A DNA stretch of 63,794 bases, the filler included, from Collodictyon triciliatum (lineage: Eukaryota): the NCBI GenBank assembly GCA_043381765.1. It is 6 parts of 6 records of this genome, joined end to end, with 100 filler letters (N's around TTAATTAATTAA, not from the genome) between each part and the next. Parts side by side here need not be neighbours in the genome. Positions count along the whole stretch, not along the records: positions 12,549 to 24,991 come from JBHJMP010002167.1; 5 more parts are not named here. One strand, given 5' to 3'. The notes under the pieces are model-generated. The model had not been told where the DNA came from. It worked only from the letters and a program-made list of their open reading frames with translations, and ran no database searches. The translations under genes and the position numbers were made by a program. Below, one piece after another: positions 22,485 to 24,561 of this stretch. The stretch's first letter is position 1, and each line of letters opens with the position of its first letter.

Positions 22485-22640
22485 GGACATAATCAAATCC
22501 GTTATGTGTTTTTGTTTAATTAGAAGGATTATAAAATCTTTCGATTGGTAAACCTGGTGCGCTAGTATCCAAGGTCTCACCACTTTTTTCACAAAGATTG
22601 TGCAGTGGTGAAGGCTACCAGGAAAGACCCAACAGCCTGT
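22485..22640 (-). ncRNA. Candidate Fanzor omegaRNA scaffold
   Basis: Overlaps and follows the Fanzor 3' end. Nested inverted repeats: CCTGGT(22553)/ACCAGG(22617), TCACCACT(22577)/AGTGGTGA(22604), CACAA(22590)/TTGTG(22598); terminal ACATAA(22487)/TTATGT(22502). Confidence 0.55.
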
Positions 22641-24561
22641 TTTTTAAAGAAAGGTGCATGCATATTTTGAAGAGTTAAAAGAACTTTCTTGAGTATATTT
22701 TTAGTGTTGATAAAGTCCCTTGTTAACAATACACCTTGCATGCTTTCTGAGAGATTGCATTCTTTACATATGAGACATCTATAAAACTTATTTTGCATTT
22801 CCTTTCGGTTTCATATATTCCAGTTCCTTTTCGCAGTTGCAACACATCTTGGAGGTTTTAAATTCATCTACACTAAAGGTTTCAAAACGTTTGGATAGTA
22901 TTTTCGTAATCCTCTTCCGATTGTTGGCATAAAATGGTTCATCTGAGATTTTCTGCTCCAATCTCCATACGCCAGTACAACATCCTTGCCAAATGTCTTT
23001 TCGATTCGGTCCATAAACAACTGTTCACTTCTTTTTGTGTTAACATACTGTCTCCATTCTCGCTACACTTTGAATCGAATAAAGGAAAAAAAAAAACATA
23101 CTGTCTCCATCTCATCTCTCGAAAAGTTACTCGTTCATAAAATTTGGATAATTCTATCTGGTATCTTGATTTCATAGATACATATTTTCGAAATTTTTCA
23201 TAATCGACTGTGCATTAATTATGTTTACTCAGTTCTGTCTCTAAATTGATTAAAGATACTCTTGATGTCTCCCCCTTGATTTTCTTCAATTGTTCTGTGA
23301 CCAAAAGAAACAGCACTTTGTAAACCTGTTGCCATGTATATCCCTGAAGAATTGTACTTTTCTTTCGTGCAAGAGTATTTTGTGATTTTTAAGAGATTTG
23401 CTATCATGTCTTTGGTGTGCCGTGTAGCGTAATTTCTTACCTGTTTCATCCGCCATGTAAACCAAATTAAACTTGCCTGCGTCCACTCCAACTATTTTTT
23501 TGTCGCTAATAAAGATAAATGCTCTTCGGAAAGTTCATCTATATAAACATATTCTTGGGTTTTTGATTATATTTGGAATTTGAATTTGAAATACCTTTCT
23601 TTTTAAATAACAATGACACCGCCAAGCCGTCTGTTTGTATCAAGTATTTAATATTGTAGTCTCTTTGATGAATGACCCTCTTCTTCATTTCAAAGAAGTT
23701 ATACCATAGTGTCTCTTTGCATCCTGACATATTCTTCAGTAATAATGTTTTTCCTGTTGATAATAATATATCTATCTATCAAACATGCAGTATCTAGAGT
23801 AATATGATATGGTATATTGTTCGTTCTTATAGGGATTGGTTGAAGCAGTTTGGTTCCAATATCCCCAAAAATGCGATTCATGTAAATTAGACATGGAATG
23901 TACTTATTTGGATTGACTTTGACGACATATTCGATAGCTTTTACAATATCGCTGGTAATGATACGATTCAAATGCATTATAGTCCATCATTTATATTGTT
24001 CCGGTATGTCGAGATTCTTGAAGATGGCAATTTTAATTTTCGTAACTATGCCTTTTTAATAGCATCCATCAATTCTCATCTTTAGGAACTTTGATTTATA
24101 AAGTGCAGTGACCTCTTTACAAAACGCTCTTTTATGTTACTATGATAAGCTGTGATTATTTGCTTCGCCAAGTACGGTAATAAACAAGACAGTCCAACCA
24201 ACGGAAAGCGTTCTTCTCGGGACAAAAGGAATCGAAAATAATTGAGATAAAAGTCATCATGTCATAACTCATTTCTGATTTTTAATCTTGCGGGTATATC
24301 TTGTGAAGCTTTTTCGACTATCTTTAAAGCGTACAGAAAAACCATTTCATAGATTGTTGAGACTTGTTGTGATTACAATATGTAACATCTTGCAAACAGA
24401 AAAGTGTCGGTAATCAAATTATGACACGATAAAACCGTATTGTTCATTTTGTAATCGTCATCCAGATTCTTTACAATCGACTGTAGAGATGTTTTCCCAT
24501 TTCGATAGTCTGGTTCTACAAACCTTAGATTCTCAAACTCAAGCCGTTTTCTTTTCTTCAT
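22589..24561 (-). pseudogene. Fanzor1 (TnpB-derived RNA-guided RuvC nuclease) pseudogene
   Basis: Broken frames give, in order: KTSLQSIV...FLFARCYIL, KVNPNKYIPCLIYMN, QPIPIRTNNIPYHITLDT, IQTDGLAVSLLF, RuvC-I VGVDAGKFNL, LAYGDWS...MPTIGRGLR, VDEFKTSKMCCNC, CLICKEC, RuvC-III TRDFINTKNIL. Several stops and frameshifts; no introns. Confidence 0.88.
23058..23094 (+). mobile_element. Micro-retroposon-like insertion, copy 1 (inside Fanzor)
   Basis: tctcgctacaCTTTGAATCGAATAAAGG(A)n between perfect 16-bp direct repeats aacatactgtctccat (23042-23057, 23095-23110). Confidence 0.9.

Follow-up and report, generated by a model that had tools for sequence, protein, structure and literature searches.

The locus raises a simple question: is the stretch of minus-strand DNA that bears the motifs of an RNA-guided nuclease a working gene or the remains of one, and to what kind of element does it belong? 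It lies in a window of 63,794 nucleotides (nt) from the protist Collodictyon triciliatum (assembly GCA_043381765.1), the whole stretch analysed here, made of six parts joined end to end; the part at positions 12,549 to 24,991 comes from record JBHJMP010002167.1. The initial annotation had read positions 22589..24561 as a decayed Fanzor1 nuclease, and both full-length homology and lesions in the reading frame bear this out. We put at roughly 0.85 the probability that the stretch, hereafter the relic, is what remains of a ~2.2-kb mobile element with a Fanzor1 gene alone and no transposase, a dead copy among the repeated and diverged members of a family in a eukaryotic genome. This type of element has been in print since 2013 and is not new in kind; a literature search on Fanzor pseudogenes found no paper on this subject. 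The gene is placed as follows:

22546..24561, minus strand: Fanzor1 pseudogene, complete from the start Met to the C-terminal tail, in about ten frame blocks

The reading frame is spread over three frames of the minus strand. Its first piece begins with a Met codon at 24561, where the gene had been said to start, and its 3′ end lies somewhat beyond the annotated 22589, homology running on to about 22546 in two of three frameshift-aware alignments. A word-based protein search with the piece that contains the GDWS motif led to P0001, an intact C-terminal fragment of 223 residues that is encoded on a metagenome contig of 1233 bp and shares 81% identity with the relic over that piece. The same type of search with the zinc-finger piece returned four candidates, none of them scoring, and the GDWS piece gave in viral contigs an 11-residue match (L001), which lies in a high-GC phage contig with no sensible open reading frame (ORF) and was discarded as chance. 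Among 1.84 billion representatives, 2142 are related to P0001 at E ≤1e-3. Metagenome contigs scanned with P0001 yielded 416 confirmed relatives, and the locus-level results given below cover 80 loci kept from these; 59 of the 80 carry a single uninterrupted ORF of 600-665 codons.

A hidden Markov model (HMM) built from 53 distinct full-length relative ORFs was run against all 2550 six-frame pieces of the window. Nine pieces of the relic matched collinearly, from profile position 3 to 602, with E values of 5.7e-23 to 7.7e-4, while a tenth piece reached E 0.66 and the top match elsewhere in the window E 1.2. As the collinear match spans positions 3-602, the relic covers the entire protein, its first residues and its C-terminal tail included. 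No second copy was found within the window, where tblastn with the ten pieces gave only noise outside the relic.

The family to which the relic belongs was then placed by comparison with solved structures. A profile of 41 full-length relatives (A1) matched three solved Fanzor 1 proteins in the PDB (E 5.5e-98, 9.3e-98 and 5.1e-75) and covered that of Spizellomyces punctatus, SpuFz1, end to end, A1 positions 11-602 aligning with residues 415-1028 of the 8gkh chain (E 9.3e-98). The next chains were TranC, a TnpB-like transposase and Cas12m, at E 0.0018 to 0.81, the TnpB-like chains being at 0.25 or worse; no chain named Fanzor2 stood among the nine PDB matches at E ≤1, the PDB content of Fanzor2 chains being unchecked. 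The single relative L083 also matched 8gkh end to end (E 2.3e-31), and P0001 matched the Fanzor 1 proteins of Parasitella (1.9e-12), Spizellomyces (2.5e-8) and Guillardia (1e-6). Single pieces of the relic gave weak but collinear matches, all to Fanzor 1 chains (E 0.03, 0.045 and 0.9), and the RuvC-III piece alone found nothing in the PDB up to E 10. In the full-length relatives, Pfam (E ≤0.01) recognised PF07282 in 27 of 41 (best E 1.1e-8) and PF01385 in one of 41. The profile search proposed by the initial annotation gave nine collinear matches of the relic to its relatives and a match of that family's profile to Fanzor 1 structures. At the level of sequence comparison, the assignment to Fanzor1 is supported by this full-length homology, which takes in the large N-terminal REC/WED part.

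All the motifs on which the initial annotation relied are present, in the order claimed, on the minus strand within 22589-24561 and in different frames:

23472..23495, minus strand: RuvC-I motif IVGVDAGK, whose Asp aligns with residue 777 of the 8gkh chain (SpuFz1 D383)
22955..22969, minus strand: YGDWS motif, with G and W almost invariant in the family
22833..22871, minus strand: VDEFKTSKMCCNC, with the shifted RuvC-II Glu ahead of the zinc finger's first CxxC
22757..22777, minus strand: CLICKEC, where the zinc finger has its second Cys pair, in register with that of the relatives
22712..22729, minus strand: LLTRDF, the RuvC-III Arg-Asp, aligning with D1000 of the 8gkh chain (SpuFz1 D606) by way of L083

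SpuFz1 numbers are those of the 8gkh chain minus the 394 residues of its MBP tag. VDEFKTSK (22848-22871) directly joins CCNC (22833-22844), and the Glu of VDEFKTSKMCCNC aligns, by way of P0001 and L083, with chain residue 935, SpuFz1 E541. The relic therefore keeps all three catalytic residues (D, E, D), which are invariant in 41 of 41 sequences of A1, whose invariant columns include D372, E530, R580 and D581. D383, E541 and D606 are described as the metal-binding residues of SpuFz1 (Saito et al. 2023, PMC10432273). A Glu just ahead of the zinc finger corresponds to what Jiang et al. (2023) call the 'alternative' RuvC-II glutamate, and E536 is recorded as extremely conserved by Bao & Jurka (2013, PMC3627910). 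Yoon et al. (2023, doi 10.1101/2023.08.09.552727) named the pattern E-x6-[CH]-x2-C ... C ... RD-x5-N and a DPG motif. The relic fits this pattern, with EFKTSKMCCNC for its first part and, for the four-Cys zinc finger followed by RD-x5-N, CCNC, CLICKEC and TRDFINTKN. It departs only in reading DAG where the family has DPG, a motif kept in P0177, a protein of the relic's own lineage introduced below, and invariant in A1.

Lesions of the frame and other copies of the unit

Is the gene still able to make its protein? Three frameshift-aware DNA alignments of the relic were made, the references being the consensus of the viral family, the clade nearest to the relic and the lineage of the relic itself; they contain 241 identical residues of 601, 306 of 604 and 350 of 588, respectively. 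All three concur on 5-6 in-frame stops, TAA, TGA and TAG mixed, and on 8-10 frame changes; it is where conservation is lowest, in 24028-24281 and 23316-23370, that their lists of lesions diverge. The interruptions are:

~24375, 24084, 24078, 24048 or 24264, 23989 and 23217, minus strand: in-frame stops, from the frameshift-aware alignments
near 24281/24255, 24028-24046, 23775, 23551-23566, 23501-23507, 23316, 23062, 22904 and 22790, minus strand: frame changes, from the same alignments
23042..23110, plus strand: secondary insertion, a 37-nt retroposon 3′ tail between 16-nt target duplications
23275..23357, minus strand: GT...AG stretch of 83 nt, missing from the viral proteins, whose removal restores the frame

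In place of the open frame of an active nuclease, the relic has stops, frame changes and a 53-nt insertion, and it is a pseudogene of the Fanzor1 family, unable to make the protein. An alternative genetic code was considered and rejected: the mixed TAA, TGA and TAG stops align with differing residues of the relatives, the frameshifts persist, and a 2231-codon host ORF in the window is open under the standard code.

The insertion is the best defined of these lesions. Its 37 nt (23058-23094) end in an A run and are flanked by 16-nt repeats, 23042-23057 and 23095-23110, that are 100% identical at a spacing of 53; they lie antisense to the Fanzor gene, whose frame is shifted by a net 53 nt. The A run and the 16-nt target duplication mark the 53-nt insertion as a 5′-truncated retroposon. 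Within the window, 26 nt of the insert recur at 60491-60516 (minus strand, 100%) and 38567-38592 (minus strand, 96%), and a looser 49-nt match lies at 40531-40579 (plus strand, 82%). The tail belongs to a far more abundant poly-A retroposon, the bin depth in X4, one set of the public contigs described next, being 1251 against ~100-500 elsewhere in the unit.

Contigs of public sequencing runs were mapped on the window at 80% likeness. Of the four runs used, three were freshwater or aquaculture metagenomes and the fourth a coded organism; no public run contained more than 9% of the sampled window words, and no RNA run was listed among those that share them. Over 22479-24701 these runs gave 195, 32, 20 and 403 contig pieces, with identities from <90% to >99%. 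Since contigs of all four tile this stretch, it is a repeated unit:

22509..24701, minus strand: repeated unit (mobile element copy), with a fairly sharp 5′ end and its 3′ end within 22509-22548

At the 5′ end, three listed contig records end at 24701 and one of them continues with unlike sequence; at the 3′ end, the depth drops in the bin 22479-22557, where loose ends occur at 22509 and 22546. The relic also stands out as an island of low GC content, 0.32-0.38 between flanks of 0.43-0.60.

The other copies allow three lesion sites to be compared directly. P0001 crosses the 53-nt insertion site without interruption, and the X2, X3 and X4 contigs omit exactly these 53 nt (23041 to 23095). At 22900, the site of a one-base shift in the relic, many other copies have an extra T (X4 depth 174.5/271.3). 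At 23216 nearly all other copies have G (X4 depth 127.6/127.6), which turns the relic's TAA into TCA (Ser), as in P0001. As the other copies are intact at these three sites, the three lesions are private to the relic or to a subset of copies, and are neither assembly noise nor ancestral. The relic offers a small and clean case of how a transposon decays, with a later retroposon insertion whose age relative to other copies can be told.

These observations bear on a different reading of the breaks, namely that the gene is alive and bears introns, the interruptions being introns or assembly errors. Introns are reported in many eukaryotic Fanzors (Jiang 2023), the break at 23275-23357 has GT and AG ends and a frame-restoring length, and the assembly is gappy, with 1516 N in 13 runs and a joint 290 nt from the unit. 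However, the stops fall within blocks that align residue for residue with the relatives, without extra DNA, most frame changes are of 1-2 nt, too small for an intron, the 53-nt insert has the A run and target duplication of a retroposon and is missing from other copies, and the three sites just described are intact elsewhere. We regard a live gene as largely refuted and extremely improbable. For the 83-nt stretch the choice is less clear. P0177 loses homology there and P0001 gains it, so to judge from the alignments it may be a small intron of the lineage, a frameshifted linker or an old shared frameshift. GT/AG pairs are common by chance, and none of the contig joints listed fits the candidate intron (23357/23275); of the four sets, X4 may be RNA.

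Being 290 nt from the unit's 5′ end, the joint at 24992-25091 makes the upstream context insecure. Like the joints at 12449-12548, 37522-37621, 50058-50157 and 62574-62673, it consists of 44 N, a 12-nt linker (TTAATTAATTAA) and 44 N; plain N runs occur at 14682-15046, 40929-41026 and 60687-61299.

The relic's lineage and its giant-virus relatives

If the relic is dead, does an intact copy exist elsewhere? A search with the best N-terminal piece led to P0176 (331 aa, NCBI) and P0177 (291 aa, NCBI and JGI), and a cluster look-up added P0178 (352 aa) to the relic's lineage. Together with P0001 these proteins span the whole nuclease, each of them partial and with a non-homologous tail at one end. 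That all four are partial suggests, as far as protein models can tell, that the copies behind them are also broken or that the gene models were cut at an intron. No intact full-length nuclease of this lineage was found in the public protein collections searched, and the intact relatives elsewhere in the genome that the initial annotation considered stay hypothetical. None of twelve clusters looked up was named Fanzor or TnpB: they had no name, 'hypothetical protein', a placeholder or, in one case, a wrong name. P0003, a 378-aa Fanzor1 fragment, is labelled '6-pyruvoyl-tetrahydropterin synthase', an evident misannotation. P0176 and P0177 bear a precomputed Pfam label, PF26935.1, which our Pfam scan at E ≤0.01 did not reproduce; the family may be newer.

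Identities and a tree were computed from a read-through of the relic, with X at each break, in a set of 92 sequences. The relic shares 64.5% identity with P0001 (142/220) and ~40% with viral copies (234/587). After P0001, the next 24 sequences by identity are P0002 and 23 copies in a viral context or that of nucleocytoplasmic large DNA viruses (NCLDV). Among full-length proteins P0002 comes nearest. A copy 88% identical to it lies on a 254-kb IMG/VR contig with the label GVMAG, and three other viral contigs bear copies with 80% identity. In a midpoint-rooted FastTree phylogeny, of the kind that had been proposed with the giant-virus Fanzors, the relic pairs with P0001 (support 0.999), this pair is sister to P0002 and four IMG/VR copies (0.965), and the wider clade with other viral copies has a support of 0.60. 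The relic points to a repeated Fanzor1 family in the source organism, whose lineage is so far represented in public by protein fragments, none informatively named, and is the sister of a large and well-preserved group of giant-virus elements.

The contigs of the loci found with P0001 reach 276 kb, have 25-41% GC and devote 66-92% of their length to intron-free ORFs of at least 120 codons. A Pfam scan of 141 neighbouring ORFs from 21 loci identified Rpb1, Rpb2, the minor capsid proteins P9 and P2, Erv1 with Pox_E10, rhodopsins, ribonucleotide reductase, thymidylate synthase, topoisomerase IA and a PolX-ligase fusion, and a separate scan of the neighbours of locus L018 identified MutS domain V. 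With such neighbours, the contigs have the gene content of NCLDV.

In these viruses the nuclease gene lies in a well-delimited element. DNA similarity among the viral relatives ends abruptly 65-89 nt past the stop codon in 49 of 54 listed loci, at ...GGTGTA, and a 32-39-nt inverted repeat (TACACC...GGTGTA) was found upstream in 32 of 48 distinct loci; 13 of the 16 loci without this left end offered less than 1.6 kb upstream in which to look for it. Among the 32 units with both ends, 22 measure 2.35-2.8 kb (for example L006:4342-6690) and 10 measure 3.3-5.1 kb. The content of four of the ten long units was read (L035, L059, L073 and L076), and in each a DDE_3/HTH_28 transposase ORF lies inside the unit on the opposite strand; L059 and L076 have a further ORF (DUF4379/DUF723 or DUF559) between transposase and Fanzor. 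A T precedes the left tip in 29 of 32 units and an A follows the right tip in 31 of 32; such TA at both tips fits a TA duplication. Copies on different contigs have 75-93% DNA identity, and one 157-kb giant-virus contig holds two, a short one (L028, 2383 nt) and a long one with a transposase (L073, 4592 nt).

Given these relatives, the relic could be a fragment of an endogenous giant virus, of which the Fanzor gene is the only part left in view. The identity ranking, the sister group of the relic and P0001 with its 254-kb GVMAG contig and the low GC content of the relic all speak for it, and virus-integrated Fanzor elements have been described in algal and Hydra contigs (Bao & Jurka 2013). On the other side, near the relic the window has no match to any of 660 ORFs from the surroundings of the relatives in viral contigs, the ORFs of the window have eukaryote-type domains only, and the viral copies are distant. 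The many repeats with their own sharp 5′ end are better explained by spread of a transposon in the host than by a single viral insert, and the midpoint-rooted tree does not settle the direction of virus-host transfer. We consider the viral-fragment explanation unlikely. In particular, the relic is not a recent viral insert, since no viral gene flanks it and it is only ~40% identical to viral copies. The initial description as 'non-autonomous or virus-derived' is narrowed to a multi-copy, transposase-less unit whose nearest full-length relatives are in giant viruses.

The remainder of the window shows domains of eukaryote type only. Among 61 scanned window ORFs of at least 95 codons no transposase or reverse transcriptase was found, and the Pfam matches were to Ank, Kelch, SAM, RhoGAP, PH and a 2231-codon WD40 protein. 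The 660-ORF search returned two matches in the window, the relic itself, found by a second Fanzor fragment in L061, and a repeat-protein match at 4888-6939. The latter (minus strand) has 20-25% identity to a 965-codon ORF of viral locus L078 and is probably a resemblance between repeat proteins; 2346-4556 (minus strand) and 4888-6939 (minus strand) are both His/Ala/Val-rich tandem-repeat ORFs. The uninterrupted 2231-codon ORF occupies 52925-59620 (minus strand) and has many WD40 repeats according to Pfam and, by eye, a P-loop motif and C-terminal Sel1-like repeats; its length and lack of introns are unusual next to the fragmented ORFs of other genes of the window.

The 3′ end and the ancestral element

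Did the element also encode a guide RNA? In the viral units the last 170 nt form three stems, and three pairs of the first stem covary, both sides being changed, in 15, 7 and 3 of 44 sequences. This 3′ segment (columns 71-229 of alignment A2, for example L003:4868-5000) overlaps the last Fanzor codons, and its final stem closes on the terminal inverted repeat (TIR). In the subgroups L006, L055 and L058 the closing stem is replaced on both sides together, ACATCACC... with ...GGTCGGTGT. At the corresponding end of the relic a fold gives:

22577..22611, minus strand: hairpin with an 8-bp outer and a 5-bp inner stem, over the end of the reading frame

It is followed by AGACCTTGG, which by eye matches the position of viral stem 1 followed by AGACCATCG.

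Several observations weigh against our reading of the relic as a dead copy of a Fanzor1-only mobile element, or against parts of it. The frame change at 23275-23357 may be an intron and not a lesion. The contigs that tile the unit come from several samples, three of them metagenomes, and their piece counts do not tell how many copies a single genome has. The unit's 3′ boundary can be placed only to within ~40 nt. No inverted repeat joins the unit ends (best local score 21 versus 18.3 ± 2.8, with 96 of 500 shuffles as good), a separate repeat search showed none either, and no TA duplication or TA pair is evident at the approximate boundaries. The initial annotation had likewise seen no transposase gene or TIR, which holds within the window, and a Tc1/mariner-type mobilisation is therefore borrowed from relatives only ~40% identical. 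The TnpB-type zinc ribbon PF07282 scores 15.1 bits on the relic piece and 17.1 on P0001, the cut-off being 26.3. The fold of 22500-22650 only modestly beats shuffled sequences (-33.8 kcal/mol, z -2.18, 5 of 200 shuffles as good). Run on the whole window, a covariance model of the viral 3′ RNA gave no match at the relic up to E 10; with filters off it scored 6.7 bits at the relic tail, with the structured core deleted. Its matches in the window (best E 0.015, at 29854-29972) are T/A-rich, of low complexity and without the structured core, and were rejected. As this model gives no support at the relic, a guide RNA at its 3′ end is inferred from the family, by analogy.

The same data bear on the idea that the remnant has kept a non-coding role, for instance as a guide-RNA-only element that uses the nuclease of intact relatives. 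A strong 3′ hairpin is indeed kept where the relatives have their first stem, but their RNA model has no significant match in the relic, no intact full-length nuclease of the lineage was found from which it could borrow, and the whole 2-kb frame is kept, unlike the compact form of guide-RNA-only derivatives. We therefore judge such a role very unlikely and return to the relic as a dead copy of a Fanzor1-only element.

What would the ancestral element have been? An intact gene would encode a protein of ~620-650 residues, predicted to be an RNA-guided DNA endonuclease of TnpB/Fanzor1 type. Its RuvC active site would comprise the Asp of RuvC-I, a C-terminally shifted Glu just before the four-Cys zinc finger, and the Asp of RuvC-III. 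By analogy with characterised Fanzor1 and TnpB systems, transcription of an omegaRNA would start at the 3′ end of the gene and run through the right end of the element, the guide coming from flanking DNA. The element would have moved by means of a transposase acting in trans, presumably of the DDE_3, IS630/Tc1-mariner type seen in the giant-virus relatives. More tentatively, and with the odds against it, the relic may be the mark of an old, host-resident and possibly intron-bearing Fanzor1-only lineage, sister of elements that giant viruses of freshwater and marine origin carry on Tc1/mariner-type transposons. In that case it would document the passage of an RNA-guided nuclease from virus to host or from host to virus, and intact genomic copies would form a separate, uncharacterised branch of compact Fanzor1 of ~630 aa that has a guide RNA and a target motif of its own. 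Fanzor1 proteins are eukaryotic RNA-guided nucleases in development as compact genome editors, and new lineages are possible sources of other target motifs. The relic itself is dead and of no direct use; its value is that of a pointer.

Comparison with known systems

The closest described element in organisation is SPu-1 of Spizellomyces punctatus, ~2.1 kb long, with a single 633-aa Fanzor1 ORF, no transposase and many copies, some of them broken; it has 33-bp TIRs and putative TA duplications, its copies are ~92% identical to the consensus and 9 of 17 are intact (Bao & Jurka 2013, PMC3627910). Like SPu-1, whose protein is SpuFz1 (PDB 8gkh), the relic's unit is Fanzor1-only and multi-copy, and its protein is homologous over the full length with the catalytic residues aligned. 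Unlike SPu-1, it has no TIR or TA detectable at its ends, its contig identities range from <90% to >99%, and no intact full-length copy of its lineage was found. The same authors described Fanzor1 in Tc/mariner elements of giant viruses and oomycetes, namely PGv-1, PUl-1 (which has a transposase) and PUl-4 (which has Fanzor only) (Bao & Jurka 2013). Compared by description, the viral relatives of the relic resemble these, being TIR-bounded, TA-tipped units that are Fanzor-only or longer, whereas the relic lies among eukaryote-type genes, lacks detectable TIRs and is ~40% identical to those relatives.

The element of SfAV, an insect ascovirus, is non-autonomous and carries only a Fanzor1 of ~606 aa, with a three-stem 3′ RNA of ~120 nt that extends ~20 nt past the right end; its clade has been placed as an early branch of compact Fanzor1s (Yoon et al. 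2023, doi 10.1101/2023.08.09.552727). The viral relatives share with it a three-stem 3′ segment, theirs ending exactly at the TIR, whereas in the relic a 3′ RNA is only presumed. Finally, the Fanzor1 family shares with prokaryotic TnpB (IS200/IS605, IS607) a core of RuvC and zinc ribbon, but differs from it in the Glu shifted toward the zinc finger and in a large N-terminal part homologous to Fanzor 1 structures only.

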